Origin: Raillietiella orientalis
Lineage: Eukaryota
Length of the DNA stretch: 64,000 nt
Assembly: GCA_036172245.1 (NCBI GenBank)
Contig: JAYWIR010000053.1
Coordinates: forward strand, 372,001-436,000
Direction of reading: 5' to 3'
In this document: piece by piece, positions 3,947 through 48,725 of the stretch
How positions within the stretch are numbered: the first letter of the stretch is position 1
Layout: the number at the start of each line of letters is the position of its first letter
Notes under the pieces: model-generated
The model's input: the letters and a program-made list of their open reading frames with translations, nothing else
Told to the model about the DNA's origin: nothing
The model's database searches: none
Made by a program: the position numbers and the translations under genes

Positions 3947-5190
3947 CGGCTAGAGCGGACGTGTTTCCTCGGTGCTCCTGTTACCGCAAACCGTCCCTAG
4001 GTGTAGGCTTCGTGTGTGGTGGTGGTCGATCAGGCAGCAATGCCTGACACGACCATCAGTGCGTGTCAGTCGGCGGTGGCAACGTCGCCTCTTGAAGGAA
4101 TGGAGTGCCAGGTGGCGGCGGAAACGTCGCCTTTAGAAAAGTTGGAGTGCCAGGGTACGGCGGCAACGTCCCCTTCAGTGGCAAAGGCGGTGAGGTCGTC
4201 CGCCCCCACAGAATGGGTCCCTGCTGCAGCGTGGGCGTGGAGCGCCGTTGTGTAGGCGCCATTGCCTGCAGCCGCGGCGCAATCATCTGCCTATGTGGAA
4301 GAGGAATATACCCCATTACTATTCTACAAGGTAGGAAATTTGTATCCTTCTGAGTGTGCGCGCGCCTTTTCGAAGGGGATGCGAGCTCTCGATGTTAAAG
4401 AGCAGGAGCTCTGCGCTATGACCATTCGTAGCGGGGGGCAGTACGTAGAGGTGATCTGCAAACATGCAGATCTGGCCCAACGTCTGCTCAAAACCCCAGT
4501 GGTAATGGGGACACGCAGGCTTTTTTTTATTTCGGCGGACCACAGTATGGTGGTCCACCTTTTAGGAGTTACCGCGCGGATGCGGAAAGAACAGTTACGC
4601 TTCGCGTTGGGAAAAGAAGGCACGGTCCATGCAGTATGGACCAACCCTAGTCCTTCCGAGGAATATACCGGAGTTCAGTGCGGACTCACGGCTGCCCGTG
4701 TAACCGTTCAGGATGGCTCTATTCTTCATCACAATCTGGTGGTCGGCGGTGAAAGCGTCGACCTGTGGAACGTGGGAAAGACAAAATACTGTGGCTTCTG
4801 CAACACGTCGGGACACCTCGAAAGGAGGTGCCCCAACGTACAGTGCCAGGTATGCGGGACAATGGGCCACACAAAAAAAGTTTTTCCGCAATCCGCTGTG
4901 CGCGTGGTTTCCGCGAGGAACAAAAAGAAACGCGCGCGGCTGCTACAGAAAAGGCTGGCGGAGAAGGCTGCCGCTCAAGCTGTGCCACCCACACCCCTGG
5001 TCCAGGCCGCAGTTGACACCACGGCAACGAATTCCGAAGAGATCGACAAAAGCGTTCAGGTGTCGGAATCGCAAGAAGCCACAGCGAAAAAGAAAAAGTC
5101 GAAGAAAGAACGACGAATTGAAAAAAAGCTCGCCTAGAAAAATAAAAAACAGAAGGATAGCGACAATTTAAAAGAATGCAGCGTCGTCGT
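3947..5190 (+). mobile_element. LINE lineage A, 5' end plus ORF1 (zinc knuckles), truncated
   Basis: 5' motif GCGGACGTGTTT at 3955-3966; CGFCNTSGHLERRC and CQVCGTMGH; internal stops at 4253 and 5135; homologous to 18906-20306. Confidence 0.9.
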
Positions 5191-7633
5191 TTATTACCCG
5201 GCTGCGCCGGGACGTTTATTATGATATCAACTGGGAACTGTGTTCCCAGGCAAGGGGAACAGAAAATGGGAAGTACATTTCCCGGAACGCAGTCCGGGCA
5301 CACTGAGAGCTCGGAACGGGAGGGGGTTAGACATGAAATCAATGAATTGGTTGGGAGGGCGGGGACAAAGCTATACAGTCTAACCTTTCCTATTCTCAGA
5401 GCCGGCGGTTAATGCCGCCGATCTCCATCCTCAGTTCTGTTCCAAGATGTGGCCACCCGTCAGCCATTTGCAGGTTGCAGGCTGCGGTGTAGGGGCCGAT
5501 GTTGGGACTCCTCGCATCTGTAATACGTGGCGGGCCCACACAATGGCGCACACGCAGCAGATGATTGCTACGACCGCTCCAAGAGAAAGTCCGCCACGCG
5601 TGTAGAAGCGGCGCATCCAATCCAGTGAGGTGTGTCCAGGGTGCAGGAGCGCTGAAGACAGCCGCTGCCACAGCTCCTGGAGGGCTCCGCACTCAAACAG
5701 CAAATGCGGAAGCGATTCCATCGCTCCGCATTTGGCACAGTTCGGGGACGCAACTCTCCCTGAAATCAGGTTCGCCCGCTGGTTGCAGTACAAACCCCAA
5801 TGCACCATCAGAGAAGCGTCCTGCGTCCGCCGAAGGGGGAAGAGAGTCGCGTCCAAACACGCAGAAGGGACCACAAGTTCATCGATGGGCACCCCGAGGA
5901 GCTCACTCCACCGGAGAAGCCCCTTTGCAAGAATGAGAGGTGTGGCAGCGTCTGCCACTTCGCAAGTCTGCCAGCCGCCCAGCAGTCGGGTTTCGCCTGC
6001 GATTTCGCAAGTGATCTCCCACCTCGCCGGCAGGTCACTGTCATCTGGCACCATCAGTGCACACAGTGCTTCGGCGAGTGTCGTAGCGGCTAGGTGTGTC
6101 CACTGGTCCTGGTCTTCCAGCACCTCCCCCATTTTACAGTATGGGGAAAGTTTCACGCAACGGAGTTCAAAACGCGACAAATCCTGTTGCGCTGCCCAGG
6201 ACGATAAGGCTTCCTGCCTCCAGGCGTTGAAGTTCGTCGGCCTGCAGAATATCCACTCATGCTTTCCCAGAAGCGTAGCGAGCTGCTTTGAAGGGAAGCC
6301 GAATCCTCTCTGGGCGCGCTCCGTGCGCAGATGCAACGAACGTAGTCCGTCGCCACCCGTCCTGCGCCGCAGCAGCAGCCGCGCTGTAGCACACCATGGA
6401 GAAGTCCAGAGCTGCGCACAAAGTGCCAGCATGCGGAACTGCACTAGCAGTCCGATCCGCTCCTGCGTCAGGATGCCCAATCCTGCGTCCCGTCGAGGAG
6501 CCGCCAAGTCCTTCAGGCGTATCCTGGACCTCGCCGGTCCCCACAGGGCGTCACGCAACAGGCGTAGCGCCCGGCGCTTAGCCGAGTAGGGAGGGGGACA
6601 AACAAAGAAGAGGGGACGGAGGAGGGGGCAAAAAAAATGTTCCACACGAAGGCCCGTTCCGATGGGGGAAACCTGCCGCCCTGGAGCGGGCCCAGAGCAG
6701 TCTTGGCCTTGTGAAGGCAGTGCGACCACGCTTCTCTTGGACAGAAGGCGACCAAGAAAACGCCGAGGTACTTCAAGCGCCTGCCCGTGGGGATCTTCAG
6801 GCCAATCCAGTCGGACTGCCGCTCCCACGAAAAGCCAACCGGTACAACGGTTGATTGCGTCCTGTTGATGCTCAGGCCCGCTCCCCGACGAATGAGCTCG
6901 AAGAACTTTTCGAACCTCGACGCCGGGGTGGACATGGGCAGCAGCAAGAGAAGTTCGTAAGCATAGGCGGCCACGGCCGGTGTTCCCGGGCAGGAGCTCG
7001 GCAGGTTGGCCAGCGTCAGCCTGTACGCCCTCAGCACCAACTCAAAGAAGATGCTGAAGAGCAGGGGGCTTAAGCTGTCTCCCTGCCTGATACCCCGCCG
7101 TATGGGAATGCCGTACACGTGGCGCTTGCTGAAATAGATACTGCATAACGCGTGGCGCCAGCAGGAGCGCAAGTAGGCTATAAGGTGCGTCGGGAGGCCT
7201 AGGCGTCCCAGAAGCTCCAGAAGGAGGTGCTAGTTTACTCTGTCGAACGCTTTGCAGAGATCGACGGCGACCGCTAAGGCTCCCGGCGTTCCATCGTGCT
7301 TTGAACACCGCCGCTTACCTTTGGCAGCGGCGATTTCGGCTGCCTGGCTCTGCTGCGCCACGCGCTGCTGCAACTCGAACCATATTCGCGCGAAGAAGAG
7401 ATTCGCGTCCATGGACCGACCCGGAACAGCATACGTCTGCTCCGGACTTACCAAGGACTCTGCGATTCTCCCCAGGCGCGCGACCCATAGCCTGGAGAAC
7501 AACTTTACGTCCGAATTTACCAATGTGATCGGACGCCAGTTGCTGAGGTGGCGCAAATCATTGTCTTTCGGCAGGAGCCGCACCTTTGCTGAGCGGAAAG
7601 AAGCGGGAACATCTCATGTCTCACGCATCAGCG
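5191..7633 (-). mobile_element. LINE lineage C, 3' part (RT plus C-terminal domain plus 3' UTR), disrupted
   Basis: NWRPITL, EQTYAVPGRS, VDLCKAFD, RQGDSLSP, mutated YAYE, CAKCGAMESLPHLLFEC; hairpin terminus at 5191-5220. Confidence 0.92.
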
Positions 7634-8745
7634 ACGGTCGCGTACGGACGTGCTTTTGCGTCGCTCCGTTGTAGATTGCTCTTGTGTGTTTTTGTTCTGC
7701 TGTGCTTCTGTGCTGCAATGGGAGCAAAGAAGAACATCAGCCGCAAGAAGGGAACGCCACCTGCTCCTGAGATGCCTGCTTCGGCTGCTAGCAAGGAGCC
7801 TCTGTCCTCGCCGACGGCGAGGACATTCGCCCAGGTCGCTGCTCTCGCGGCTACGATGGGACCTTCGCCCGACAGCCCTGAGCTTCAGGCGTATGTAGCA
7901 AATGGCTACACGCTTGCACTCAGGTGTAAGGTAAGTGTCCTTATGCCTGAGCGGGTTGGGCGCGAGTTTGGCCAGGAACTCCAACGGATTGGAGTTCAAA
8001 AAGGCCAACTGGAGTCCATCATTCCCATGAGTGGGTGCGGCTAATGAAAGGTGTCCAGTAAGGACGCTCTTCTTACGCAGCGTTTGCTACACACGCCGTT
8101 GCTCATTCGTGGGCAGGAAATACTCACTGTCACAACGGACCAGTCGTTCGTTGTCCGGCTCAGTGGAGTGTGTAAGGGCCTTTCGGACCGCCAGGTCGTG
8201 GAGGCCCTTGAAAAATTCGCTACCGTCCACGCGCATTGGAGGCTGCCAAACCCTGCTGAAGGGTTCGAAGACCACCACAGCGGGCTCGCGCAAGTGCGAG
8301 TGACGATGACGGATCGCCGTGCAATGCACACGCGACCGCAGGTGGATGGAATGACCGTCCGCCTGTGGTTTTCCGGGCAAACGCGTGTATGCGCGGAATG
8401 CGGACAGGAGAGTCATCGCATTACGAAGTGTTTCTCGGCCGCTTGCCGTTACTGCCAGGAGCACGGGCACACTAAAGTAACGTGCCCGGAGCTCCTTTTA
8501 AAAAACGAAAAGCGCAGGAACGAATCGCGTTCCGCATCGCGGAATAATCGCCGCGAATCAAGAGAAAGAAACATCAAAGCTTCGAAAAGCGTTGCGAAAA
8601 CCGCGACCACGGACGTGCAGAAAACTGTTTCTCCCCTCCACAAAGAAGGGGTGAAAAACAAAAAAACTCGTCGCGGCGAAGCCTCCGGCTATCGAACCGA
8701 AGGAAGCTCGCGAAGAATGCGACCGACTCGCGGGTTCTCCCGTTG
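7634..8745 (+). mobile_element. LINE lineage D, 5' end plus ORF1 (ATG 7718, one internal stop at 8042), truncated
   Basis: GTACGGACGTG at 7642-7652; CAECGQESHRITKC and CRYCQEHGHTKVTC; homologous to F ORF1. Confidence 0.88.
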
Positions 8746-10689
8746 CCCCAAAGGGCGACACGGAGGAGGTCCTTCGTTCGCTTGTTGACCCTCTCTGTGG
8801 GGGGGCAAACAAAAAGCAGGGAACGGAGGAGAGGAGTAGCGAACATGTTCCAAACCGCGGCCGTTCAGGCAAGAAAAACCTGCCGCCTCGGAACGGGCCG
8901 ATAGCCGTCTCTACTTTTTGAAAGCAGCCGGACCACGCTTCCGCAGGGGAGTAGTCCCCCAACGGCACACCAAGGTACTTGAAGTACCTCACCGTGGGGA
9001 TCCCGAAAGGGACCCAGTCCTGCTGCCCTGCCCACGCCGCATCAACTGGCATCACGGACGACTTCGCCCTGTTCACCGTAAGCCCGGTTCCTCGATTCAG
9101 CAGGTCGAAGAACTTCTCGACCGCCGAAGCCGGGGTGGACATAGGGAGCAGTAGCAGGAGGTCGTCCGCATATGCTGAAACCGCAGGCGTTCCGGCGCAT
9201 TCATGGGGCAGGTGCGCCAGAGTTTCCCTGTACGCTTTCAGTACCAACTCAAAGAAGGTACTGAAGAGCAAGGGGCTCAGGCTGTTTCCTTGCCAGATCC
9301 CAGGTCGCACCGGCACGCCGTGAACATTATGCCCGCTGAAAGTAACATTGGTTAGCGCATCGCGCCAGCTAGAGCGCAGATAGGCAAATAATGAGGCCGG
9401 GAAGCCCAAGCGTTCCAAATGCTCCAGCAGGAGATTCTGGTCGATGCTGTCGAATGCTTTACGCAAGTCGACAGCGACCGCAAGTGCTCTCTCCCCCATC
9501 CGACCATTCGTCGCATGACTGACGGACTCACCGGAACTCCCGGTGCGCATCAAGCCCCTTTCGTGTTGGAGCTCTAGCCAGGTGGATGCGTGGAACAGGT
9601 TCGCCTCCATGCTTCGCCCCGGAACAGCATATGTCTGCTCCGGGCTAATTATGGATTCTGCCACCTGCCTTAGACGCGAAGCCCATAGCCCGGCAACCAA
9701 CTTGGCGTGCGTATTCACAATCGTGATCGGACGCCAGTTGTTCAAATTCCTAAGGTCTCCCCCTTTCGGAAAGAGCCTCACTCTGGCTGACCGAAACGAG
9801 GCGGGAACATCGCCTTCGTCTCGGATCAGCCTTGTCAGCTGAAGCAGCAGGGGTTCCAGCTCTTCCGCGAAGCTCTGATAGAACTCGGCGGGCAAGCCGT
9901 CTTCCCCTGGAGCTTTCCGCAGCTTGAGCCTTTTGATACCGGCGAGAATTTCGCCGGTGGTAAACGGCTCATCGAGGCTTAACGACTCCTCCTCTCCTAT
10001 TGCCGCAGCACCATCCGGAAGCAAGAGCCGAGAGGCACCTTGATCCGGGGGCGCCCTGGCGTAAAGGGAGGAGTAATAGCTCCGCACGAGATGCCGTACC
10101 GACGCCGGGGACAAACATTCCCGGCCCTGGTCGTCCAGCAAGCTGGCCGACCCGGATTGCCAGGCTTGGCATTCGGCCCCGGCGCGGTACTCGGCCAGGC
10201 GATGGACATTAGGGGTTCGCTCGTACCTACGGGCCTGTAAATAGGCCCGATGGTTGCGAGGAATCTCGCCGAAACCGGAGGGCAGGCGGTCCGGGGGGAA
10301 CTGCTCGCAGAACTCCCGGACCGATTCCTTAAAAATGACCCAATCCTGAAGATTGCGGAGCATGACGCCTCTCAGGTATTTGCGAAGGTGTTCCTTCGCA
10401 CCTGAGAGTCGCGTCCAGTCTCCGGGTAGACGCCAGTCCCTGGATCGCGGTCCTTTGTCGCGAGGCCGCAGCTCGCAAATTAACCGGGAATGGTCCGACA
10501 ACGTTGACGCAACCCTCCCCCGTTTGCCGACCCGTGAACACAGGTCAGCGTCGTGGAAGACGTGGTCGATGCTGCGGACCATTCCCCTCTCACCCGCGAA
10601 CAAGTTGCGCGCACGCATGGCGGCGCACAACTCGTTCATCGCGTTCACTTGTGTTTCCGGCTCACCTGTTAGCAGGCGGAGATTGAAAT
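8746..10689 (-). mobile_element. LINE lineage E, ORF2 middle part (second half of endonuclease plus RT); continuation of 16596-18905
   Basis: FNLRLL, SIDH, SDH, KAPGEDG, NWRPIT, VDLRKAFD, AYADD, YLGVP; frame joins GDFN at 16596-16610 once F is removed; 3' end absent. Confidence 0.93.
10681..10689. repeat. Target-site duplication of F (GATTGAAAT), partner at 16596-16604
   Basis: Identical 9-mers abut both element termini. Confidence 0.93.
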
Positions 10690-11002
10690 TTATCACCCGG
10701 TCACGCCGGGGCGTTTATTAATAATAATAAACTGGTCAGGGACAATGTCCCCAACCAAGAGAACGACAGAGAACATAGAAAAATTACCGGCACGCAGGCC
10801 TGGTAAACAAACCGCTCGCAGCGTGGGGGGAATGAGGGGAAACAAACAAAAATCAAAAACTGGAGGGAAGGGAAAAGGGTTTTTGGTTAGGCTCCGTACT
10901 CACGGGGATTTATACGATGAGCACCTAAAATGTTCCGGAGCCTATGGGGACGCGGGTGTAAAAAGAAAATACAAATTTAGTTTATGGAGGGTAGGGCAAT
11001 GA

Positions 11003-14000
11003 TCACCGGGTTGGCCGCTGATGAGGGTGTGTAAACCGGAGGTGTATTGCGGCGAGATTCCTCTTTGTCTCCTCTGTCAAATGAGGCCATCTAGCGGATG
11101 CTCCCATGTAGAAGGATGCTTTGCTGATTACCTCTTGGTGCTGTCCGTTGATTACCAACGCCTGGCGGACGGAAACTATCGCGCGTATGCAACCGATGGT
11201 TGCAATCCTTGCGCTTAGTGACAGCCCGCTCGGCGTGAAGAATCGTCGCAGCAAGTCTCTTGCGGTGTCCACGAAATGCAATAGTGCTGTTGCCAGCCTA
11301 CGCCACAGTCCTTGTAGGACACCGCAGTCCAGAAGTAGGTGCGGAATCGACTCCGTCGATCCGCACCGAACGCAGTTCGCAGACGCAAGTCCCCCGGAGT
11401 CACGATGCCAACGCTCGTTGCACTGAAAACCCCAGTGAACGAAAAGCAGCACGGCTTGTTTCCAAGCAAGGGGGAGCAGCGAACTGTCCATACACTGTGG
11501 AGGGACTACAAGTTCTTCGGGGGTGACAGCAAGTTCTTCTGCCCACCGGAGGAGTTCCTTTGCAGTAACACGAGGAGTGGCGGCGTCCGCCAACTCACTT
11601 GTCTTCCAGGTGCCAAGGAGTTTGGTTCTTCCCGCTATCGTGCAGGAAACCTCCCACCTCGCCGGTTGGTAACTGTCGTTTTTTGCCCTGAGGGCAGACA
11701 GCGCTGCGGCAAGAGGCGTGGCAGCCAGGGTAGAAAACTTCACCTCGTCCTGCAGTACTTCTTCCAAGGATCGTGGAAAAAAATGGCGCAGGGGGCGAAG
11801 ATCTTCAGGGCGTATTCCTTGGAACGCCGCCCAGGATTCAACAGACTCCTGCCGCCAAGCTTCAAAGTTCATTGGGCGGCAGGAGATCCAAGAGTGTGCT
11901 TCCAGAAGTGCGGTCAACTGCCGCAATGGAAACCCGAACCCCCGCTTCCTGTATTGAGTGCCCGGCAAAAGCGAGAGAAATCCTCCGCTGCCGGCGCATC
12001 TCCGCAGGAGAATGCGAGCTGGCACACACAGGGGGGATGTCCATAGCTGGGCACACAGTGCCAGCAGTCGGAACTGCACCTGCAGTCCGATTCGCTCCAT
12101 TGTCAGGATACCCAAACCAGCATCCCGACGCGGAGCTGACAAATCTTTAAGGCGGATCCTGGATCTCGCCGGACCCCAGAGAGCGTTCCTGAGCAGGCGC
12201 TTAGCCCGCTGTTTTGCCGCATAGGGGGGTCCAAAACAAAAAACAGGGGACGGAGGAGGGGGGCCACAAAGGTGTTCCAAATAGTCGCCCGTTCCTGCAA
12301 GGTAAACTTGCCGTTAAAGAACGGGCTGATGGCCAACTCTGCTTTCTGAAGACAGTCCGCCCACGCTTCGGCTGCGCCGAAAGCGCCCAACGGAACGCCA
12401 AGGTACTTAAAGTACTCGCCCGTGGGGATCCCCAGGCGGATCCAGTCGGACTGCCCCTCCCACGACGTACCCACAGGAACGACCACGCTCTTCTCTCTGT
12501 TCACGCTCACGCCCGCTCCCCGACGAATCAGGTCGAAGAAATCCTCGACACTGGACGCCGGGGGGGACATGGGGAGCAGAAGAAGCAGGTCATCAGCGTA
12601 GGCGGCCACGGCAGGCGTTCCCGGGCAGGAGCTTGGCAAGTGAGACAGCGTCAGCCTGTATGCTCTTAGCACCAACTCAAAGAAGATGCTGAAGAGCAAC
12701 GGGCTTAAGCTGTCACCCTGTCGGATGCCCCTACGAACGGGAATACCATACACGCGGCAGCCGCTAAAAGTGATGCAGGTTAGCGCGTGGCGCCAGCACG
12801 CGCGCACATACAGCAGGAGTTGCGCCGGGAACCCAAGGCGTTCCATAAGCTCCAAAAGCAGCTTCTGGTTTACGCAGTCGAACGCCTTGTGGAGATCGAC
12901 CGCGACCGCCAAGGCACCTGGCGTTCCCTCCTGCCGTCGGCGCCTGTTCTTTTTGCCTGCGGCAGTGACTTTCGCAGCAGCTTGGCTTTGCTGCGCCACA
13001 ACTTCCTGCAGCTGCATCCATGTACGCGCGAAAAGGATGTTCGCCTCCATGGATCGTCCCGGAACCGCGTAGGTTTGTTCCGGGCTCACCACAGATTCCG
13101 CGATTCTTCCTAACCGCGCGACCCACAGCTTGGAAAACAACTTGACGTCCGAGTTCACCAAGGTGATCGGACGCCAGTTGTTAAGTTGGCGCAAGTCTCC
13201 GCCTTTCGGCAGGAGACGCACCTTCGCTGAGCGGAAGGAATCAGGGATATTCCCGGATTCACTCATCAGCGTCGCGAGTTTCAGCATCAAGGGAATGAGC
13301 TCCACTGCAAAGCACTGATAAAACTCTGCAGGGAGCCCATCCTCGCCTGGCGCCTTTCGTCTCTTCAGCCCAGCGATGGCGGACGAAAATTCATCCGCCG
13401 TGAAGGGCTCGTCGAGACGTTCGCGTTCCTCCTCGCCGACAACACGAACATCCTGAGACAGGAGTATCTCAGAAAGAATATCCTCCGTCGGGGATTCCGC
13501 GTAGAGCGAGGAGTAGTAGCGTCTCACAATGCGGCGTACTTCGGCTGGGGCCGAACATTCCTTGCCTTTGTCGTCCAACAGGCATGCTGCTCCGGACTGC
13601 CAGACCTGGCGCTCGGCCCTCGCCTTGTACTCTGCGAGACGCCCGACATCCGCACGTCTCGAAAACGTGCGGGCCTGCAGAAAGTCTCTACTGTTGGCCA
13701 CGCCCTCTCCGAAACCGCGTGGAAGCCGGTGCAAGGGGAATTGGCAGCAGAACTCGCGGACAGATCTTTTGAGATCGTCCCAGTCCGCAAGTTCTTGAAT
13801 GGCAAAGCCTCGGAGGTATCCACGTAGATGCTCCGCAGCCTCCGGTTGGCTAAGCCAATCCGCCTGCATCCTCCAGTTTTGCAACGGAGGCCCCCTGCCT
13901 GGCGGAAGGATCTCAAACTTCAACCTGTGGTGGTCAGAAAGCCTAGTCAACAATCTTCCTCTCCTGCCCACACGCGAATGCAGGTTTTCATCGAGGAAAA

Positions 14001-14595
14001 CGTGATCGAGCGATCTTTCCATTCCAGGTTCGCTGACCATCAAGTTGGCGGCGTGCACGGACGCGCACATCTCGATGGGCAGCGCGCGCTTCCTCGGGCG
14101 GCTCCAATCGTCGGAGAGCAGGCGGACGTTGAAGTCCCCAGCGACGAGGTGCGCCACTTGGAAACCGGAGTTGTTGAGCCAGTGGCTCTGCACCTCATCA
14201 AAGAAAGCTACTCTTTCTTCGAGGTAGCGAGAGCCACTCGGCGCGTAGACGTTCGTAACGACGAGATCGATGGACTCGGACCACTTGATGACAAGCTGGC
14301 CTATCCGTCCGTTGTCATCGAAACGAACACTACGCACCGCTTCCGCCATTTTTCCTCTTACGAGGAACGCGACCCCGCACGTGTGTGCGCCGCCGCACCG
14401 CCAATGTAGCGTTCCGCCAGCGCGCTCCTCGATTTCGGCTGCCTGCTCGTCGGAGATTACGTGAATCTCCTGCAGCAGCGCGAGGTCGAAGGGGCGCAGG
14501 GCGTTGGCTACTAATCGCCTCTTCTCGTCGTTCTGCAGTCCGTTCACGTTCCAACACGTTACGGACAGACGACGAGAAGACGCGATTCCCCGCAT
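11003..14595 (-). CDS. ORF2 protein (~1200 aa): APE endonuclease, RT, CCHC; single frameshift near 12230
   Basis: WNVNGL, QEIH, NVYAP, GDFN, LDH, SDH, QTYAVPGRS, KAFD, RQGDSLSP, YADD, CVRCGSTESIPHLLLDC; ORFs 12103-14595 and 11003-12280 join at a homopolymer-rich stretch. Confidence 0.9.
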
Positions 14596-16517
14596 TACTG
14601 CTGGGAAGGTGGCGGCTTTTTGCTCGCTTTATCCGGCGAGTAGACGGCGAGCAGCACGACTGGCAGGCGGGGACGGTCGCCACCGTCCTCTGTCGTGCTG
14701 CATGCATGTAATGCCTCCACGCCAGGCTGAACCCCGTCGGGTTTCGTGGAGACTTCGCGTTGCTTCGCGGCGAGCGTTGCCTGGCTGCCTACTTTTGATC
14801 GGCGCGCACACGCTTTCGAACGAGTTGTCCTCGTCTCGGTGATCGGAACGGCATCCATTTCGGAGTCCGACCGGCGCATGTTCGATCGGGTTTCGGCCTT
14901 CCGCGAAGCAGTGACAGGTTCTGCTGGATTGACAGCTGTCCTGTTGTCGTTTTCCGTCACCAGAGCATCGCTTTTGGTGACGGCTGCTTTCCCGGCGCGC
15001 GCGTTTTCAGCGTGCTCACGCGCAGCTGCACGAGGGACCTTTGCTGAAGTCTTCTTTACTTCATTACGGGTCCTCACTTCGCGTGGCGCCGTAAATGGAG
15101 ATTGTGCTCCATGGCCATCTTTGAAGCCATCCGCGTCTTTGGACGGGAGCACTTTCGATGGCTCCGACACGCTCGTCATGGACGCTGCTTTCGGAAGGGC
15201 TTTTAAGCCCTTCGTTGGCATGGCATCCGCGCCAGTCGAGAGCTTGCTCTCCGACTGCGACGGCGTGAGATTTTTCTCCGCTTTCGCGGTGTTGGATCGC
15301 GACGCGGATTTTTTTTTGCCGACTTTCGAAGTCGACACGGCACAAACCTTCTTACCCGATTTGGGCTTCTCAGCCACTGCAGGAGGTGAAGGAATGGATC
15401 TGACGGTACTGGAAGTGTCCTTACCGCCGTTGTCCATTGACGTCCCCGCCGGTTGCTCGAACTCCGAGAGAGCCGGGCGTGCTTGGGAAGGACAGCTATT
15501 GCGCCTAGGGGGACTTACCATTGCCCCGGATTCCCCGCACCCTTTCTTTTGCGGCTCCCCCGCCGCGAGAGGGGGTGCGCAGGGCTTCGCGTGCGAGGTT
15601 TCCTGCTGCTTTGGGGCGACATTCCGCCTCGCGTTTTTACCGAATTTCTGCCGTGGGGTCTCCAGGTTTTTCGCAGATTTTTTCTTTTTATCCGCGCTTT
15701 GTTTTTTAAAATGGAGCTCCGCGGCTGCCTTTTTTCGCAAAAGATCCGGGCAATTTTTTAATTGGTGCCCGGATAGTTTGCAATAACGGCATTTTGCAGA
15801 GGGGCATTTATCCAAACAATGCCCCTCCTTCCCGCATTGCTCGCACGTTTTTACTTTGCCCACGAACCACAGGTGAACGACCGTGTCTTTCACCTGCAGT
15901 TTGGTGGGCAGCAGACGGCGGTCCGGCATTGTAAGCCGGACTCCAGCGACTCCGCTGTGTATGGACGGGAAGTCCTTGAGGCTGCTACGCACCCTCCATA
16001 GCGCATGGACCGTGGCGAATTTCGCCAACGCGTTCCGAATATCAGTATCGGAGATTTCCGACTCGATGTCGAAAATCTCCACCACAAATGAGTCGTCCAT
16101 GGCGGTCGGGAAGACCTTCTGGCCACGGATCGACAACGGGGTGCGCAGCAAGCGTTGCACAAGTGCAGCGTCTTTGCAACGCACCTTGAAATAGCCCATG
16201 TCTTTTAAGGGCATAATGGCGAGAAGGTCCTCCTCCCGCACGCCAACACGGGTCAGTTCATCGTTGAACTGATTCCCGTCGCGCGCAGAAAGAAAACCAC
16301 TCACCTTATATCGGAGAGCAGGTCTATAGCCTTGGGCTACGTATGCCCGCAACTCCGACTCGTCGAGAGGTTTCCCTTTGACGGCTGCTGTGGCAGCAAC
16401 GTCAGCAAAACTCCTCTCCATTGGCGAGAAAGACGAAGTGGAGGCGGCCGTCGGTTCCGCGATTGCAGATCCAGATGCTGTTCCTCCAACTTCAGTAGCT
16501 TCAAGTTGGGTCGACAT
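14595..16517 (-). CDS. ORF1 protein (640 aa), two CCHC zinc knuckles and long low-complexity C-terminus
   Basis: Open frame from ATG 16517; CEQCGKEGHCLDKC and CRYCKLSGHQLKNC. Confidence 0.9.
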   Translation of the reverse strand: MSTQLEATEVGGTASGSAIAEPTAASTSSFSPMERSFADVAATAAVKGKPLDESELRAYVAQGYRPALRYKVSGFLSARDGNQFNDELTRVGVREEDLLAIMPLKDMGYFKVRCKDAALVQRLLRTPLSIRGQKVFPTAMDDSFVVEIFDIESEISDTDIRNALAKFATVHALWRVRSSLKDFPSIHSGVAGVRLTMPDRRLLPTKLQVKDTVVHLWFVGKVKTCEQCGKEGHCLDKCPSAKCRYCKLSGHQLKNCPDLLRKKAAAELHFKKQSADKKKKSAKNLETPRQKFGKNARRNVAPKQQETSHAKPCAPPLAAGEPQKKGCGESGAMVSPPRRNSCPSQARPALSEFEQPAGTSMDNGGKDTSSTVRSIPSPPAVAEKPKSGKKVCAVSTSKVGKKKSASRSNTAKAEKNLTPSQSESKLSTGADAMPTKGLKALPKAASMTSVSEPSKVLPSKDADGFKDGHGAQSPFTAPREVRTRNEVKKTSAKVPRAAAREHAENARAGKAAVTKSDALVTENDNRTAVNPAEPVTASRKAETRSNMRRSDSEMDAVPITETRTTRSKACARRSKVGSQATLAAKQREVSTKPDGVQPGVEALHACSTTEDGGDRPRLPVVLLAVYSPDKASKKPPPSQQ

Positions 16518-16595
16518 CGTCGTCAAAATGTACGACGCCAAGATGAAGCGGATGAAAGCACGGAGACGAGAGCGAAGAAAAACACGTCCGCACTC

Positions 16596-18905
16596 GATTG
16601 AAATCTCCCGCTATCAGGTGAGCCTTCCGCACGCTCGTGTTCGCCAGCCAGTCGCGCTTCAGGGATTCAAGCAGCCTGGTACGGTTGCTGTATCCCTTTT
16701 GACCGGTTGGGGCGTACACATTCGTAACGATCAGATCGATCGAGTCGGACCAGCCGAGAGTCAGCTGACCGACCCGACCGTCGTCATCGAAGCGCACGCC
16801 CTTCACGGCAGCGTCGATGGCCGGCTTCACGAAGAACGCGACCCCGCAGGTGTTGCGGATGCCGCATTGCCAGTACAGCCGACCCCCCGCGATCGTCTCG
16901 ATCTCCTGGACGTCTGCCGCGGTGATCACGTGGATCTCCTGCAACAGGGCCAGGTCGAACTCCCGCAGGGTGTCAGCTGTATCTCGCCTGTTACCGTCGT
17001 CGCGCAGCCCGTTGACATTCCAACAGGCCGCGCGAATCCGACGGCGACTGGCGAGCCCAGGTGTTACTCCTGGGAAGATGGCAGTGCGGCGTCCGCCACC
17101 TGCTGGGGCGGGACGCTAGGTGTAGCAGGGGGGTCAGGTGCTGAAAGCACCTGGTCCCCCTCCTCCATCGGTGCCGGCGCGTCGGCCGGATCACCCGCAG
17201 GTGGAGTCGCGCCTACCTGTTCGCCCTCCTCCATGGGGGCGGGCTGTTCAGGGTCGGCGCCTGCAGGGGGGACTTCACCCCCCTGTTCACCCTCCTCCAT
17301 GGGGGTGGCCGCATCGACGGCTTCCGAGCGTGGGAATTCCTCCTCCGAATTTCCCACGCTGGCGACGGCTTCCGTCTTCTCCTCCTCGCTGGTGGAGGGG
17401 AGGCGCCTCCTGGGCTTCTGGGACTTGCGTCCCGACTTCCTGGGGGGTGCCTCCGAGGAGGAGGATGTGCTTCCGGCCCCCAGGTCTAACTCACCTGTGG
17501 GGGCCTTCTTCGCCGGAGCCGGCCTTCGCACGGCCTTGCGCGAGGGGTTCTCACGCTCGGCCAGCGTGACCGCGAGCTCCTCCGCCGCCTGCGCGAACGC
17601 GGCGTCCGCGGCTTCGACCGCCGCTATGTCGCGCGGCTCACCCTCTGTGTAAACAGAGGGTTCGCCTTCGCGAGCCTCGGGCGCAGCGGAAACGGCAAGG
17701 GGAGGATCGACGCTCCGGGTGGCAATCTCGGGAACGACGATTCGTTCGAGTGCCACCGTGCACTCGCGCAGAGTTTTCGAGCGGGGACCGGGTTTTTTCG
17801 GCTTTCCGGCCGTCTTGCGCTCTTTGCTCTCCGCGGGTGGGAGTTTCCTTGGTTTTCTGGCCTCTACAAGCTGCCATCCCTCTTCGCCTTCCACCGTTTC
17901 AGAAGGTTTATCCTCCGGCTTACGCGCCGGAGGTTGAGGTGTTGGCAGCTTGTGTTGGCCCTTTTCCACTCTAGGTCTAGAGACCTTTGAAGCGCGTTTC
18001 CCCTGCGCTTTTTTCGCGGCAGGGGGAACCGGGGTGGGGCGTTTTGGGCACACGCGCCGAACGTGGCCCCGCTCCCCGCACAAATGGCATTGTATATTGG
18101 GACACCTTTTACGTAGGTGTCCCACGGTATCACAATGCCCGCAATACCGGGGCTTCCCTACATACCACAGGTCGACGTTTTCTTGCGCCACCTGTAGTTT
18201 GTGGGGAAGCCCACAATTCTCCCGTACGGTCACCCGCGCTGCAGCCTGCCCACCAAAAAGGCTATCGAAGCCGTCAAAAATGGAGGGTTTCGGCCACAGT
18301 GCGTGCACCTCACCGTACTTTCTTAATTCCTCACCAACCGCTGACCGCGTCATGCGGCTGGTGATGCCAGTCATGTGGACCACCACGGAGCGGTCCATAG
18401 ATACTGGCAGGATCTTGCGGCCGTCTACGTTCAGCGGCGCATGGATTAGGCGGTGAGCCAAGGTGACATCTTTGCAGACCACCTCGACCCGCTGCCCGCC
18501 GCTGAGGACGGAGAGGCCGTCCAGATCCTTCTCTGCAACATTCGCGTCCTTCAACGCTTTGCTGAATTCGCGCGCTGTCCGGCCGTCGAACAAGTGGCCT
18601 ACCTGGTAGACAAGCGATGGCTTGTACCCGGAGGCCTTGTATGCGGCCATCTCCGCCATGGCTTCTGCGCTGGACGCGGCCACCATGGCGCTCCATGTCC
18701 TCGGCGTGGCCGGGGATGATTCCGGGGCGGCTGCCCCTGCTCCAGTAGGCTGTGGGGGCGAACTAGCCTCCCCCACTCCCACCTCCATCGCGGTGTCCTC
18801 TGGCGTCGTGGCCATTGGACACCGACGATGTACACAAAACACCACACAGAAGAAAAAGCGCTTTCCTACTACTCTTGAAGAGTGAAGGAAAAACACGTCC
18901 TCCAA
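16596..18905 (-). mobile_element. LINE lineage E, 5' end, intact ORF1 and first half of endonuclease up to GDFN
   Basis: GGACGTGTTTTT at 18889-18900; CWNVNGL, QEIH, NVYAP, HLIAGDFN. Confidence 0.94.
17064..18815 (-). CDS. ORF1 protein (583 aa), two CCHC knuckles and three acidic PMEEG repeats
   Basis: Open frame from ATG 18815; CGHCDTVGHLRKRC, CHLCGERGHVRRVC. Confidence 0.9.
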   Translation of the reverse strand: MATTPEDTAMEVGVGEASSPPQPTGAGAAAPESSPATPRTWSAMVAASSAEAMAEMAAYKASGYKPSLVYQVGHLFDGRTAREFSKALKDANVAEKDLDGLSVLSGGQRVEVVCKDVTLAHRLIHAPLNVDGRKILPVSMDRSVVVHMTGITSRMTRSAVGEELRKYGEVHALWPKPSIFDGFDSLFGGQAAARVTVRENCGLPHKLQVAQENVDLWYVGKPRYCGHCDTVGHLRKRCPNIQCHLCGERGHVRRVCPKRPTPVPPAAKKAQGKRASKVSRPRVEKGQHKLPTPQPPARKPEDKPSETVEGEEGWQLVEARKPRKLPPAESKERKTAGKPKKPGPRSKTLRECTVALERIVVPEIATRSVDPPLAVSAAPEAREGEPSVYTEGEPRDIAAVEAADAAFAQAAEELAVTLAERENPSRKAVRRPAPAKKAPTGELDLGAGSTSSSSEAPPRKSGRKSQKPRRRLPSTSEEEKTEAVASVGNSEEEFPRSEAVDAATPMEEGEQGGEVPPAGADPEQPAPMEEGEQVGATPPAGDPADAPAPMEEGDQVLSAPDPPATPSVPPQQVADAALPSSQE

Positions 18906-20306
18906 CTGGCCTTGGAGGGTTCTGGCTGCAACGAAGCTGACAGCTCCTCCGCTGCTCGCGCGAAGGCTACGTCATCGATGGTGGTGTCGATGACGGACGC
19001 CGCCGCCGTCTCGCTCCCCTCGCTGTTGACTGTGTCAACAGAGGGGAGGTCGTCGGAAGCGGCGAGTTCTTTCCGGCAGCGTTCGGCAACATCGAGAGCG
19101 CGTTCGACAACGACGCTGCACTCTTTAATAATCGCGCTACCTTGCTCTTTCTTCTTCTGTTGGTAGGCGATTTTCTTTTCCATCCTCCTCTCCTTCTTTG
19201 ATTTTTTGGCCGTTCCCACTTGCCACCCAGTCTCCTGACCGGCTCCCTCAACTTTTTCGGCGTTGGTCGCCGGGGTCTCGGGTTCGGCCTGGGTCTTGGG
19301 CGCGGGTGGCACAGCCTTCGCGGCAGCTTTCGCCACCAGCCTTTTCTGCAGAAGCCGGGCGCGTTTTTTAAGGTTTCTCTTGGAAACCAACCGCACTGCT
19401 GCTTTAGGGCACACCTCCCTCGTGTGTCCCATGGTTCCGCATACTTGGCACTGCACATTGGGACACCTCTTTTCGAGGTGGCCCGACGTATTGCAGAAGC
19501 CACAGTATTTCGGCTTCCCCACATACCAGAGGTCGACGGTTTCGCCTTCGACCACCAGTTTGTGGGGAAGAGTGCAGCCCTCCCGAACGGTCACGCGCGC
19601 AGCAGTGAGGCCGTGTTGCAGCCCCGTGTAGTCCTCGAAAGGACTTACTTTCGTCCACTGCGCGTGGACCGTTCCGAACTGTTCCAAAGCGGCGCGAACC
19701 TGTTCTTTGCGCATTCGCGCGGTTACGCCTAACAGGTGGACCACCATGCTGCGGTCCGCCGTAGTGGGGAGGAGCCTGCGCGTCCCCATCACAACAGGGG
19801 TTTTAAGCAGTCGTTGGGCCAGCTCTGCATGTTTGCAGATGACCTCAACGTACTGACCCCCGCTGCGGATGGTCATAGCGCTAAGCTCCTCCTCTTTCAC
19901 ATCGAGAGCGCGCATGCCCTTCGAGAAGGCGCGCGCGCTCTCTAAAGAATATAAATTGCCTACCTTGTAGAACAATGAGGGGTTGTACCCCTCCTCTACA
20001 TAGTCCGACAATTCCGCCGCGGCTGCAGGCGATGGCGCCGACACAACGGCGCTCCACGCCCGCGCTGCAGCGGGGACCGATTCTGTGGGGGCGCATGCTT
20101 CCACCTCCATCGCCTCCGGGGGCGACGTTGTTGCCGCCCCCTGGCTCTCCATCGCCTCTGGGGGCGGCGTTGCCGATGCCTCCTGCCCATCCCTGGTGGT
20201 CGCGTCAGGCATCGCTGCCTGATCGACCACCGGACCACACGACGCTTGCACTGGGGGAGACTTCCTGGCACGAGGAGCACCGGGAAATCACGTCCACCCT
20301 GGAGCA
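18906..20306 (-). mobile_element. LINE lineage A (copy A'), 5' end plus open ORF1, truncated by E
   Basis: GTGGACGTGATTT at ~20285-20297; CGFCNTSGHLEKRC, CQVCGTMGHTREVC. Confidence 0.92.
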
Positions 20307-22385
20307 CGCAAGGCTTTCGATTGCGTAAATCAGGATCTCCTGCTGGAACTCCTTGGTCTCCCGGTGCACCTCGTGGCGTATTTGCGCGCTTGCTGGCGCC
20401 ACGCGCTCATTTCTATCTCTTTCAGCGGCTGCCACGTGTACGGCGTGCCGGTGCGGCGGGGCATCAGGCAGGGCGACAGGTTAAGCCCGTCGCTCTTCAG
20501 CATTTCCTTTGTGTTGGTGCTGAGGGCGTACAGGCTGACGCTGGCCAACCTGCCGAGCTTTTGAATAGGAACGCCGTCCGTGGCGGCCTATGCTGACGAC
20601 CTGCTTCTCCTCTTACCCATGACCACCCCGGCGTCCAGTCTCAAGGTTTTCTTCGAGCTGTTCCGCCGGGGAGCGGGCATGAGCGTAAACCGGAGCAAGA
20701 GCGTGGGCGTGGTCGTACCCATTGGTGCGGCGTGGGAGGGGCAGTCCGACTGGATCCTCCTGGGAATCCCGACCGCTTCGTCCACTTAATATCTGGGCGT
20801 TCCGCTGGGGAACATCAACCCAGTGCAAGTGTGGTCGGACTGCCTTCGGAAGGCTACGAGTGCGCTGAACCCGTTCCAGCATGGCAGGTTCCTCCTGTCG
20901 GAGCGGACCGTGATATGGAACACCTTCGTTGCCCCCCTCTTGCGCCTTCTGTTTTTTGTTTGCTCGCCCCGCTTCTCGACGAAGCTTCAGGCGCACAGCC
21001 TGTTGAGGAACGCTCTGTGGGCTCATGCGAGGTCCAGGATCCGCCTCAGAAACTTGGCGGCTCCGCGTCGGGGTGCTGGCTTAGGCATCCTGATGCTCGA
21101 GAGATTCGAGCTGCAGATGCAGCTTCGGATGTTGGCCCTGTGCGCCAACCTTTGGTCCACTCCGTGGTGCGCTCCTGCGCGCTTGCTCCTGCGGCGCTGC
21201 ACCGGCAGCGACGGACTTCTGTCGCTGCGTCCGCATACGGAGCGCCCCACGACAAGTTTCGGTTTCCCTTTGAAACCCCTCTAGCGGCTCCTGGCAGCCC
21301 AGGAATGGCTTTCCTGCCACCCAACGAACTTTCAAGCCTGTTGTCAGGAACCGCTGTATGGCTGGGCAAAGCACCAGGATGTTTCCCTCCTGGAACTCCG
21401 TTGCGTTCATCTCTTTTCGTACTGCAAGGTGGATGAGGTGTGCAGCAGCCAGGAGAAGTGGACCGGTTTGGCCCTCACCCCCCTCGCCGACGCACTGTCA
21501 GCCCTCAGAGCAAGAGATGACAGCTGCCAACCGGCGAGATGGGAGGTCGCCTGCACCATTGCAGGAACAACACGACCTATTGGCGGCTGGAGGACTTGCG
21601 AGCTCGCTGACGCCGCCACGCCTCGCCACATCTCGAAAAGACTCCTTCGGTGGAGTGAACACTTGAGTGTGCCTCCCGAAGAATTTCTGGTCCCTCCCTC
21701 CTGTTTGAACACTTCTGTGTTCCCCCTTTCGTGGAAGCAGGACGTCATCATGCTGGTGCATTGTGGTTTTCACTCCAACCAGCGGACGAACCTTGTTTCC
21801 GGAGGAGTTGTCTCCCCAAACTGTAAGCGGTACGAAGAAGTGGAAACGCTCCTGCACCTGCTACTGGACTGCGGTGCTCTCCTAGGACAGTGGCAGAGGC
21901 TGGCCTCAGCTCTCCTGCACCAGGAAGACGCCACAAGGGACTTGATGCGCCGCTTCTTCACGCCAGGCGGCCTGGTGCTGTCGTTGCAACCGTGTGTTGC
22001 ACCCGCGCCATCGACAAGGCTCACCGAGAGTTGGAGAAGCTGGCCATCGTTCGTCAGCCCACCGGATTAGCCAGCGCAAGCATGTCGTCGGCTGCCGAGT
22101 GGGCCCATCTTTCACAGGACGTAAGGAGAGAGATCGCCTTCATCCATCGCCGGTTTTGAAAGGAAGGAACGGACTTACCAAAGACCCCTGTCCCCTGCCC
22201 TCCATATTTTTATTTTTATTTTTTATGGTAGTGTATTTGTGGTCCTCTCCCTCCCGTTCCGGACTTCCAGCATACCGACCTGCGTGTCGGGGATCCCACC
22301 CCCTTCGTATCTTGTTTTCCCGTTTGTCCGGGAACTCTGTTCTCGGGTAGTTTGTAATAGACGCCCCGGCGCACCCGGGTGACAA
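20307..22385 (+). mobile_element. LINE lineage G, 3' half (RT from RKAFD to 3' terminus), disrupted
   Basis: RKAFDCVNQ, RQGDRLSP, AYADD, ETLLHLLLDC; terminus GCCCCGGCGCACCCGGGTGACAA at 22363-22385. Confidence 0.92.
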
Positions 22386-24412
22386 ACAGCCGACCCCCCG
22401 CGATCGTCTCGAACTCCTGGACGTCTGCCTCGGCGATCACGTGGATCTCTTCCAACAGGGCCAGGTCGAACTCCCACAGGGTGTCGGCCGTACCTCGCCT
22501 GTTACCGTCGTCGCGCAGCCCGTTGACATTCCAACAGGCCGCGCGAATCCGACGGCGACTGGCGAGCCCAGGTGTTACTCCTGGGAAGATGGCAGTGCGG
22601 CGTCCGCCACCTGCTAGGGCGGGACGCTAGGTGGAGGAGGAGGGTCAGGTGCTGAAGACACCTGGTCCCCCTTTTCCATAGGTAACGGCGCGTAGAGCGG
22701 GTCACCACAGGTGGGGTCGCGCCTACCTGTTCGCCCTCCTCCATGGGGGCGGGCTGTTTAGGGTCGGCGCCTGCAGGGGGGAGTTCACCCCCCTGTTCAC
22801 CCTCCTCCATGGGGATGGCCGGTTCGACGGCTTCCGAGCGTGGGAATTCCTCCTACGAACTTCCCACGCTGGCGACGGCTTCCGTCTTCTCCTCCTCGCT
22901 GGTGGAGGGGAGGCGCCCTCTGGGCTTCTGGGACTTGCGTCCCGACTTCCTGGGGGGTGCCTCCGAGGAGGAGGATGTACTTCCGGCCCCCAGGTCTAAC
23001 TCACCTGTGGGGACTTCTCCGCCGGAGCCGGCCTTCGCACGGCCTTGCGCGAGGGGTTCCCACGCTCCGCCAGCGTGACCGCGAGCTCCCCCGCCACCTG
23101 CACGAACGCGGCGTCCGCGGCTTTGACCGGCGCGTCGCGCGGCTCACCCTCTGTGTAAACAGAGGGTTCGCCGTCGTGAGCCTTGGGCGCGGCGGAAACG
23201 GCGAGAGGAGGCTCGTCGCTCCGGGTGGCAACCTCGGGAACGACGATGCGTTCTAGTGCCACCGTGCACTTGCGCAGAGTTTTCGAGCGCGAACCGGGTT
23301 TTTTCGGCTTACCGGCCGTCTTGCGCTCTTTGTTCTCAGCGGGTGGGAGTTTCTTTGGCTTTCTGGCCTCTACAAGCCGCCATCCCTCTTCGCCTCCCAC
23401 CGTTTCAGAAGGTTTATCCTCCGGCTTACGCGCCGGAGGTTGAGGTGTTGGCAGCTTGTGCTGGCCCTCTTCCGCTTTAGGTCTAGAGTCCTTTGAAGCG
23501 CGTTTCCACTGCGCTTTTTTGGCGGCAGGAGGAACCAAGGTGGGGCGCTTGAGGCACACGCACCGAACGTGACCTCGTTCTCCGCACAGGTGGCACTGTA
23601 TGTTCGGACACCTTTTGCGTAGGTGTCCTACTGTGTTACAGTGCCCACAGTAGCGGAGTTTTCCTACGTACCAGAGGTCTACGGCTTCCTGGCAGACCTC
23701 GAGCTTGTGAGGTAGCGCTCTACTCTCCTTCACGGTGACACACGCTGCGGCCTGGCCCCCGAAAACGACATTGTAGCCCTCAAAAATAGTAGCCTTTGGC
23801 CTCAGCTCGTGAACCTCCGAATTTTTTCAATTCCTCACCAACCGCAGACCGCGTCATGCGGCTGGTGATGCCGGTCCGATGTACCACTACGGTCCATCGT
23901 GACTGGCAGGATCTTGAGCCCATCCCTGTTCAGCGGGTTGGTGATCAGACTTTGGGCCAAGTAATGTCCTTACAGACAACCTCGACGCGCTGACCCCCGA
24001 TAAGCACGGAGAGGCCGTCACGATCCTTTGCGAAAATAGTGGCGTTCTGCCGCGCTTTCGTGAAGGCGCGTGCAGTTCGCCCATAGAAAAGGTTGCCTAC
24101 CTGGTAGAGTAGCTAGGGTTCATAACCCGCTGCCTTGTAGGCTTCCATCTCGGCCATGGCTTCTGCGCTAGGCGCGGCACCCATGGCGCTCCAACTCCTC
24201 GCCTTGGGTGGCGAGGGCGATTCCGGGGATGATGGCCCTGTTCCATTTGGCTGTGGGGGCGTACTAGCCTTCCCCACGCCTACTTCCATCGCGGTATTCT
24301 CTGGCATCGTAGCCATCGGACACCGGCGATGTGTGAAAACACGAACATTAGCAAAGAAACTCTCTCCACGCCTGGCTGACGGAGCGTGAAAAAAACACGT
24401 CCGTACTCGACG
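22386..24412 (-). mobile_element. LINE lineage E (copy E'), 5' end, disrupted ORF1 and start of endonuclease
   Basis: GAGTACGGACGTGTTTT near 24395-24410; closely similar to 16875-18860. Confidence 0.92.
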
Positions 24413-42382: not shown

Positions 42383-42439
42383 ACCACCTGAAGCTCCGGG
42401 AATTACTGGTGAACCTCCAAGAAAGAGCGTGAGCAGGAC

Positions 42440-42614
42440 GAAATCCTCTCGCTGCAATGATGCCCTTCTTCATTAACCACTTGGACAGCAGCACCGCGGC
42501 TGCATGGGAAGTCATCACCGGAACAGATAAACAGAAAAGACTGGAGAAAAAGCTCGCGTACCGCAGCAAAAAGCAACTGGGCAGCAAGGAAAGAAAAAGA
42601 TGCAGCGTAGTCTT
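42440..42614 (+). pseudogene. Lineage A ORF1 fragment ending at KRCSVV
   Basis: KRLEKKLAYRSKKQ...RCSVV matches 5100-5190 and 19105-19200. Confidence 0.8.
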
Positions 42615-48357: not shown

Positions 48358-48725
48358 GGTTGAAGTCTCCCGCTATCATTTGAGTCTTCCGCACATTCGT
48401 TTCCGCAAGCCTGTTGCGCATCGATGTTTCCAGGAACACTGTGCGTTCCCGGTACCCCTTTTTTCCGCTGGGGGCGTACACGTTTGTGACGATTAAGTCG
48501 ATCGACGCTGCACTGCGACGTCCGCCACCTGTTGCGACGGAACGCTAGGTGGAGGAGGGGGTGCTGAGGGCACCTGGTCCCCCTCCTCCATTGTTATCGG
48601 CGCGTTGGGCGGGTCTCTCGCAGATGGGGTCGCGCCTACCTTTCTGTTCTCCTCCATGGGAGCGGGCTGTTCAGGGTCGGCGACTGCAAGGCGGAATTCG
48701 CCCTCCTGCTCACCCTGATCCATTG
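48358..48725 (-). mobile_element. Lineage E remnant: ORF1 tail fused by deletion to endonuclease IDLIVTNVYAP...IAGDFN
   Basis: PMEE repeats; similarity to 16600-16740 and 17090-17300. Confidence 0.85.

Follow-up and report, generated by a model that had tools for sequence, protein, structure and literature searches.

A 64,000-nucleotide stretch of the Raillietiella orientalis genome (assembly GCA_036172245.1, contig JAYWIR010000053.1, positions 372,001 to 436,000 of the forward strand), referred to here as the window, contains two copies of a retrotransposon lineage, F, whose 5' ends are joined to the same base of a related lineage, E, where the catalytic GDFN motif of the E endonuclease is encoded. 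We consider it probable that F is an L1-like long interspersed nuclear element (LINE) lineage of the apurinic/apyrimidinic endonuclease (APE) type, whose integration is sequence-specific for the 10-20 bp or so that encode this motif. The support for such targeting has a sample size of two, namely one complete insertion (F1 in E1) and one 5' junction (F2 in E'). All features of F1, F2, E1 and E' are on the minus strand, coordinates are those of the window, and all counts were made within its 64 kb.

The junctions are found in a nest of related retrotransposons lacking long terminal repeats (non-LTR elements) that takes up the first 27 kb and the region 42-51 kb of the window, with a GC content of 56-62% compared with 41-50% around it. 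At least six diverged lineages are present (pairwise synonymous divergence, dS, of about 1 or more), with six full-length 5' ends in both orientations.

F-type 5' ends at the GDFN codons of E-type elements

The complete insertion, F1 (10690..16595), is a full-length L1-like element with its 5' terminus at 16577-16594, a 77-nt 5' untranslated region (UTR) and, at the 3' end, a GC hairpin and then GATAA(A), poly(A) being absent. E1 lies on both sides of it. The 5' part of E1 (16596..18907) starts with the terminus AGTTGGAGGACGTG at 18907 and contains an open first reading frame (ORF1, with CCHC) and the N-terminus of the endonuclease down to GDFN, while the 3' part (8561..10680) holds the C-terminus of the endonuclease and the reverse transcriptase (RT) in an open frame of 718 amino acids (aa), and is cut at about 8561 at the opposite-strand element C2. 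F1 is flanked by a perfect target-site duplication (TSD) of 9/9 bp, ATTTCAATC; the copy 5' of F1 (16596..16604) consists of the last bases of the E1 GDFN codons and adjoins the insert, and the other (10681..10689) lies downstream of it, where E1 resumes in frame (FN LRLL). Beyond F1 the sequence reads TCC GCC TGC TAA..., that is LRLL, so that the interrupted protein is continued as GDFN/LRLL. One contig of sequencing run X1 corresponds to an empty E site, joining 10680 to 16596 and skipping exactly 10681-16595; in this contig 9 letters fit both sides, the shorter side has 30 letters and the intervening stretch is marked as not known. Its depth is 8.6, versus about 15-19 for the contigs of F1.

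At junction 1 (16596/16595) the sequence GGAGATTTCAATC is followed by a G and then by AGTGCGGACGTGTTTTTC, the last E base being 16596, the extra G 16595 and the F terminus beginning at 16594. At junction 2 (48358/48357) GGAGACTTCAACC is followed directly by AGTGCGGACGTGTTTTTC, with the last E base at 48358 and the F terminus from 48357. In the alignment the F-type 5' ends (2/2) come after the same base, the one that follows the Asn codon of GDFN; this agrees with a preliminary reading made from the letters of the window (hereafter the sequence-only reading), which had noted insertion of F in the GDFN codons of E twice, at 16596 and 48358. The extra G at the F1 junction may be untemplated or derived from the cap, as reported in studies of L1.

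Full-length F-type 5' ends open with the conserved terminus AGTGCGGACGTG, and, with up to 3 mismatches allowed, the 18-nt F terminus has three occurrences in the window (0.04 expected from shuffling). The target-side sequence GGNGAYTTYAAY also occurs three times (0.25 expected), these being both junction sites and the own site of F1. E-type GDFN sites are filled by F in 2/2 cases, and none of the four homologous GDFN sites of non-E copies (F1, F2, A at 692-1787 and L at about 26.4-27.6 kb) is interrupted. The own site of F reads GGGGACTTCAACG in F1 and GGGGACTTCGACG (GDFD) in F2. It differs from the E site at 2 of 24 core bases, with GGA in one and GGG in the other, and C versus G at the sense-strand cut; downstream of the core, TCCGCCTGCT is identical in the E site and in the own sites of F. 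A third E-type element, E3 (22386..24409, minus strand), is 86% like E1 in nucleotides and opens with the terminus AGTACGGACGTG. It is uninformative with regard to F targeting, since the 3' end of element I cuts it at endonuclease residue 81 and its GDFN site is missing.

Both coding regions of F1 can be followed. ORF1 (16517-14595, minus) encodes two CCHC knuckles, and ORF2 (14595-11003, minus) an APE endonuclease, an RT and a Cys-rich C-terminus; the stop of the former and the start of the latter overlap as TAATG (14593-14597, minus), which suggests coupling by termination and reinitiation. E1 has no overlap of the TAATG type, and its ORF2 frame does not begin with a Met. No stops are found in F1, and the frames of E1 are open too. 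ORF2 of F1 has one frameshift in the window, near 12223, where a 99%-identical X1 contig carries one extra G behind that position; the frameshift probably reflects an error of the consensus or a base that differs from copy to copy. F1 is probably intact, because the extra G joins the ORF2 pieces into about 1208 codons by frame arithmetic. At 8560/8561 the RT of E1 meets ORF1 of C2 on the opposite strand, with both broken and neither showing a true end; a rearrangement at this point removed the 3' end of E1.

The second copy is less complete. E' (48358..48730) is a diverged E-type fragment that retains the ORF1 tail and the endonuclease as far as GDFN, and it ends at the F2 junction. With respect to E1 and E3 it has an internal deletion of about 345 bp (48505-48510 versus 16743-17081), just upstream of that junction, which takes away the end of ORF1 and endonuclease residues 1-124. 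F2 is composed of a decayed F-type part (44290..48357), with an F1-like 5' terminus and an ORF1 head 73-74% identical (aa) to that of F1, and a D-type part (42613..44290), which covers the RT C-terminus, the ORF2 C-terminus and a 3' end with a degenerate hairpin and GATAAAA. Identity between F1 and F2 is 43-64% over the middle and tail of ORF1, the tails being unalignable, and 86-94% (nt) from the start of ORF2 to about 12520/44300, as anticipated in the sequence-only reading, according to which the two copies have unrelated ORF1 tails and yet very similar endonuclease and RT regions. Beyond about 44300 F2 is 55-73% like F1 and 76-86% like D (5190-7641) in a four-way alignment. The switch is sharp, at about 44284-44300, and a single breakpoint at 44284-44286 explains 561 of the 704 discriminating sites, defined as positions that distinguish F1 from D and at which F2 has the base of either. 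The reading frames of F2 are broken by at least 12 in-frame stops and four or more frame changes.

At the 3' end of F2, GATAAAA is followed by GACTACGCTGCA, which is not E sequence, and for this reason copy 2 has no TSD. The proposal that removal of F and one TSD restores HLIAGDFNLRLL in frame thus stands for copy 1 and does not extend to copy 2. The mosaic points to recombination that involved two insertions lying next to each other, or else to a mosaic lineage that is active. Most likely, a D-type insertion close by recombined with copy 2, which thereby lost its 3' half and the E sequence downstream: the exchange would have taken place within the RT region, between F in E' and the D-type element in a neighbouring C/H-type ORF1, with deletion of the DNA between them, and would explain both the mosaic structure of F2 and the missing TSD.

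With respect to its classification, the ORF2 product of F1 matches Exo_endo_phos (4e-13, residues 26-233) and RVT_1 (1.4e-21, residues 474-746). Its nearest solved relative is human L1 ORF2p, with E = 5.8e-48 compared with 4e-16 for the best R2 protein, and the endonuclease region matches L1-EN chains at 6e-6 to 8e-5. Matches to zf-RVT (E = 0.0065) and zf-CCHC (E = 0.0021) are both below the curated cut-offs, and CX2CX4HX4C motifs are visible in the translations. The order of the domains and the nearest solved relative support the assignment of F to the L1 superfamily. A poly(A) or A-rich tail of the L1 type is absent, all nine hairpin-bearing ends continuing from the hairpin into (G/A)A(T/C)AAA and none into poly(A). 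The protein database gave 43 matches to F1 ORF2, one of them a JGI fragment with 61% identity and the others with 30% at most, and the protein atlas returned only generic APE and RT clusters.

Several other searches gave negative results. For the 204-aa read-through frame that joins the E endonuclease to the F 5'UTR, none of the 859 candidates from the protein database was scored. A metagenome scan with the 5' terminus motif found 52 loci, and 0/52 had a tblastn match to six E and F proteins, so that all 52 are taken as chance occurrences. None of the 17 matches from a pattern search of genome contigs with F1 ORF2 was confirmed. No Rfam family reached its gathering score over the window, where three weak matches to microRNA models (E 0.29-1.2) were located around the junction; there is thus no sign of a hepatitis delta virus-like or other known ribozyme at the F 5' end. 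In 30 ORFs from the non-LINE parts of the window no Pfam families were detected. Runs X2 and X3 yielded one and nine short low-identity contigs, respectively, and were uninformative.

Independence of the two junctions and alternative explanations

That the two F insertions are separate, and not one duplicated junction, had also been proposed in the sequence-only reading, and it is borne out by signs of selection, unequal divergence and the counts of stops. Over aa 1-700 of ORF2, F1 and F2 show a dS of 0.26 and a ratio of nonsynonymous to synonymous change (omega) of 0.50 (p = 6e-7 versus neutrality), and in the C-terminal third of ORF2 the values are 1.2 and 0.27. The endonucleases of E1 and E', compared over 49 alignable codons, have a dS of about 1 and an omega of 0.20 (binomial p = 2e-4 to 7e-4). 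Across the junction, identity changes from 73% in the E flank (150 nt) to 86% in the F insert (first 300 nt); one duplicated composite would give equal values, and the unequal divergence therefore argues against it. The copies also differ in age, the frames of F1 and E1 being open and F2 having accumulated its stops. Judged by these substitution patterns, the two junctions are independent events, in which insert and target have each diverged under purifying selection.

The alternative to independence is that a single ancestral insertion of F in one E copy was later duplicated as a composite, whether by segmental duplication, through gene conversion among E copies or because a read-through transcript promoted by E was retrotransposed, so that both junctions would record one event. 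The junction sequences are indeed near-identical over 30 nt, the two loci align straight across the junction at 76% (15721-16743 versus 47485-48505), copy 2 lacks a TSD of its own and the nest is visibly rearranged at other places. But neutral decay of such a composite predicts an omega near 1 and equal divergence on both sides, while the observed omega values are 0.20 (E flank) and 0.50 (F ORF2), with a synonymous difference of about 0.55 in the flank compared with 0.22 in the endonuclease and RT regions of F, in line with the difference in identity given above. A neutral change of 10% per copy would moreover have destroyed the open frames of F1 and E1, and the stops are found in F2; the ORF1 tails of F1 and F2 (43-64%) cannot be aligned, and copy 1 carries its own perfect TSD. 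We regard this explanation as quite unlikely. A coincidence, or a weak hot spot, with insertion taking place anywhere in the nest or being guided by a short motif or structure near TTCAAY, is also unlikely in our opinion. The shared base would then be a matter of luck, helped by the inspection of many junctions, and the heterogeneous flanks of the 3' ends of other lineages (nine hairpin-bearing ends), the location of E-type 5' ends at two different sites and a target space that is small because every insertion here lies in another element are all consistent with it. Against this, we estimate at about 1 in 10,000 the chance of a second hit at the same base of a target of about 6 kb, in either orientation; the same pattern is seen twice more in the window with other pairs of lineages, and the four non-E GDFN sites are empty even though they share TTCRAC and, in F1 and F2, the identical sequence downstream.

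It could also be thought that the junctions did not arise by primary insertion but by template switching, by 'twin priming' on two templates or by ectopic recombination. F2 is demonstrably chimeric, with a sharp breakpoint, and the head-to-head arrangements B/C1, D/C2, I/H and J/E3 each combine a full-length 5' end with an opposite-strand element broken in ORF2 and could have arisen in one of these ways. Copy 1, on the other hand, with its perfect TSD and the precise in-frame continuation of E, has the signature of ordinary target-primed insertion. In addition, the GDFN codons of E are joined to the true 5' terminus of F and not to its homologous GDFN region, which argues against homologous recombination, and no microhomology exists beyond a possible single base; an origin of this kind is very unlikely. 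An assembly artefact in a repeat-rich region seems extremely improbable to us. An error of one base in the consensus is indeed probable for at least one position of the window, 12223, and none of the X1 contigs listed bridges either F1 junction by the 31 letters required by the bridging rule, one reaching 30 letters and another 19 letters into E. Nevertheless, X1 contigs of 99% identity cross both F1 junctions, with overlaps of 30 and 19 letters; the two junctions differ at many flanking positions and are therefore not copies of one misjoin, and a misjoin would not produce a TSD and a consistent frame.

Several facts weigh against sequence-specific integration of F in the GDFN codons of E. Only two junctions are available, one of them with both ends, and a TSD with a restored frame is found in 1/2. 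Copy 2 provides a 5' junction only, its 3' junction lies elsewhere and an extra recombination step is needed to account for it. The counts are confined to the 64-kb window, so copies of F at other sites may exist, and the selection test on E1 and E' is limited to 49 codons. The small difference between the own site of F and that of E (2/24 bases) means that fine discrimination would be needed, or self-hits should be expected. The F1 sublineage may be near single-copy and the census of its insertions possibly small: in run X1 the depth over F1 ORF1 (bins 14818-16572) equals that of one contig, bearing in mind that contigs cannot prove absence. Finally, the 5' end of E1 lies in the tail of H ORF1, in sense, and that of E3 in the ORF2 of another element, in antisense; with E-type elements, the closest relatives for which two 5' ends are informative, at two unrelated sites, site specificity is not universal among these lineages, and the nine hairpin-bearing 3' ends of the window have varied flanks.

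Proposed integration of F and its relation to known systems

If F integrates by target priming, its endonuclease would nick the antisense strand at the border of (A)TTTCAATC that lies upstream (5'), and the freed 3' end would prime reverse transcription from the 3' hairpin and GATAA(A) tail of F. The sense strand would be cut 9 bp downstream, just past the base that follows the N codon. Such staggered cuts would give rise to the 9-bp duplication and to a full-length copy in the orientation of E, leaving the E endonuclease split at its active site. By analogy with Tx1L, R1 and TRAS, we infer that the endonuclease of F supplies the specificity; the order of the nicks and their exact positions are proposed on the same analogy.

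The D-type and C/H-type elements described below also reuse one site each in sister elements, which suggests a general habit of a guild of lineages. We put forward, tentatively, a wider possibility in which F targets the GDFN codons of E, C/H-type elements the RT motif A of B and I (in antisense) and D-type elements the ECSVV codons of C/H (in antisense). The lineages would then parasitise and disable one another, building and renewing a self-contained GC-rich nest that might be a centromere-like cluster, as is the case with Zepp. Targets of this kind would mirror those of homing endonucleases, in that a catalytic codon cannot mutate away without killing the competitor.

APE endonucleases with a defined target have been described in other organisms. 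Those of Tx1L, TRAS1 and R1Bm recognise around 10 bp about the cut (PMC1919474), and for Tx1L the reports indicate that specificity is carried by the endonuclease itself and that Tx1 inserts in Tx1D (PMC1919474, PMC6719617). Tx1L and Tx2L of Xenopus laevis, members of the L1 superfamily that use one site in the DNA transposon Tx1D, resemble F as APE LINEs that target another transposable element. F differs in its target, which is not a DNA transposon but a coding motif within a sister LINE that belongs to the same family; the specificity of F rests on two junctions and that of Tx1L on biochemistry. R1, R2, TRAS/SART and Utopia share with F an exact site in a conserved multicopy sequence, and a review of target-specific LINE groups points out that a constrained multicopy target cannot easily mutate away (PMC4640811). 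The targets of these groups are RNA genes or repeats of the host, in contrast to the active site of a competitor; R2 and Utopia have a restriction-like endonuclease, and F an APE.

As regards the cluster itself, the L1 elements Zepp and ZeppL form clusters nested through insertion into existing copies, with GC peaks (PMC8226300, PMC3446292). Those of Zepp (Chlorella, Coccomyxa) and ZeppL (Chlamydomonas) are, like the nest in the window, nested and GC-rich, with 61% versus 53% for Zepp and 56-62% versus 41-50% here. Zepp arrays are depicted as made mostly of 5'-truncated 3' ends of one self-inserting family, a composition not found in the window, which contains several diverged lineages; full-length copies occur in it in either orientation, and poly(A) is absent. 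Each lineage here appears to have its own exact site in another lineage, and the likeness to Zepp is one of cluster structure. Cnl1 of Cryptococcus is presented as a non-LTR element that prefers to insert within itself, forming nested arrays (PMC9942834). Self-insertion, tandem orientation and a subtelomeric location differ from the cross-lineage insertion at catalytic-motif codons seen in our case.

Target-specific LINEs, with sites in host multicopy genes, in repeats or in the DNA transposon used by Tx1L, are therefore already known, and so are self-nesting clusters such as those of Zepp and Cnl1. A narrow search of the literature found no earlier report of a LINE targeting the catalytic codons of a sister LINE. 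What sets the present case apart is the target, the sequence coding for the catalytic motif of a sister LINE; there is also a hint that several coexisting lineages each have their own site in one another. If the interpretation is correct, this would be a direct case of a retrotransposon lineage exploiting and inactivating a competitor, and would offer a mechanism at the sequence level for the growth of nested LINE clusters of several lineages. It would also imply the existence of natural APE endonucleases with long and distinct recognition sites, with three candidate sites in one window, which would be of practical interest for site-directed integration. It would also make it testable whether the two-base difference shields F from itself.

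Other recurrent sites and organization of the nest

A second recurrent site (5183-5220; 42605-42644, minus) is defined by two D-type 3' ends, those of D and of F2, which lie in antisense after the codons for (K/R)(E/R)CSVV in 2/2 cases. D (5190..7641, minus) extends from RT residue 453 of ORF2 to a true 3' end and abuts in antisense the KECSVV codons of C1, an element (3952..5189, plus) with a C/H-type 5' terminus, a 5'UTR and ORF1 as far as ECSVV. In the other copy, a C/H-type ORF1 fragment (42384..42612, plus) ends in ...KRCSVV, where the 3' end of F2 abuts it in antisense. The flanks are 56-65% identical and the inserts 72% in the 3'UTR and 76-86% in coding sequence; for D and F2 omega is 0.41 (p = 2e-7). 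The same site is uninterrupted in H, at 19108 (region 19095-19150).

The third recurrent site (3940-3965, plus; 20290-20315, minus) corresponds to the 5' ends of C1 and H, which lie in antisense at RT motif A in 2/2 cases. C1 has as opposite-strand partner B (1780..3951, minus). H (18908..20300, minus) consists of a C/H-type 5' terminus and ORF1, carries E1 in its ORF1 tail and has as partner I (20301..22385, plus), broken at the same RT motif A codon as B. The alignment of B, and likewise that of I, to F1 ORF2 begins at residue 581, 8-9 nt from the junction, and the break is located just before (R/H)KAFD. C1 and H show a dS of 0.99 and an omega of 0.22, and for B and I these values are about 1-1.9 and 0.32-0.37; on the basis of these figures the partners at this site are old, separately evolving and under purifying selection. 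H is filled at the third site and empty at ECSVV, and the two types of junction are hence separable events. No microhomology was seen that could account for both partners being broken at RT motif A; two-strand priming on two RNAs, as an origin of the head-to-head pairs, leaves the shared codon-exact break unexplained. An 'onion' model, in which the halves of the nest are the same interrupted elements, was discarded for the layer formed by D and E3, D being only 55% (aa) like the RT of E1.

A common 5' terminus, AG..(C/T)GGACGTG followed by a run of T, is observed at 3952, 7640, 16594, 18907, 20300, 24407 and 48357, in at least five lineages. The end of C2 (7640/7642) starts with GCGTACGGACGTG and has only a loose AG fit; at least six elements share the conserved terminus. 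Its role is probably that of an initiator, an internal-promoter element or a processing signal, and it matches no Rfam family.

Nine elements have in common a 3' end composed of AATAAA, a CCCGG...CCGGG hairpin and a tail similar to (G/A)A(T/C)AAA, with no poly(A) (1780-1810, 5190-5220, 10690-10719, 22356-22385, 24915-24951, 25871-25900, 40754-40783, 42353-42383 and 42613-42644). Four of the nine are AT-rich upstream and look short, and could be non-autonomous riders that make use of this 3' structure. The 3' flank of another LINE copy, B', was considered as a further test of recurrence and found uninformative, as it runs straight into an LTR-like element that starts exactly at the 3' tail of B'. 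This element (50779-60804) is bounded by direct repeats of 1420 bp, 99.65% identical and 8606 bp apart, and has the appearance of a young LTR retrotransposon.

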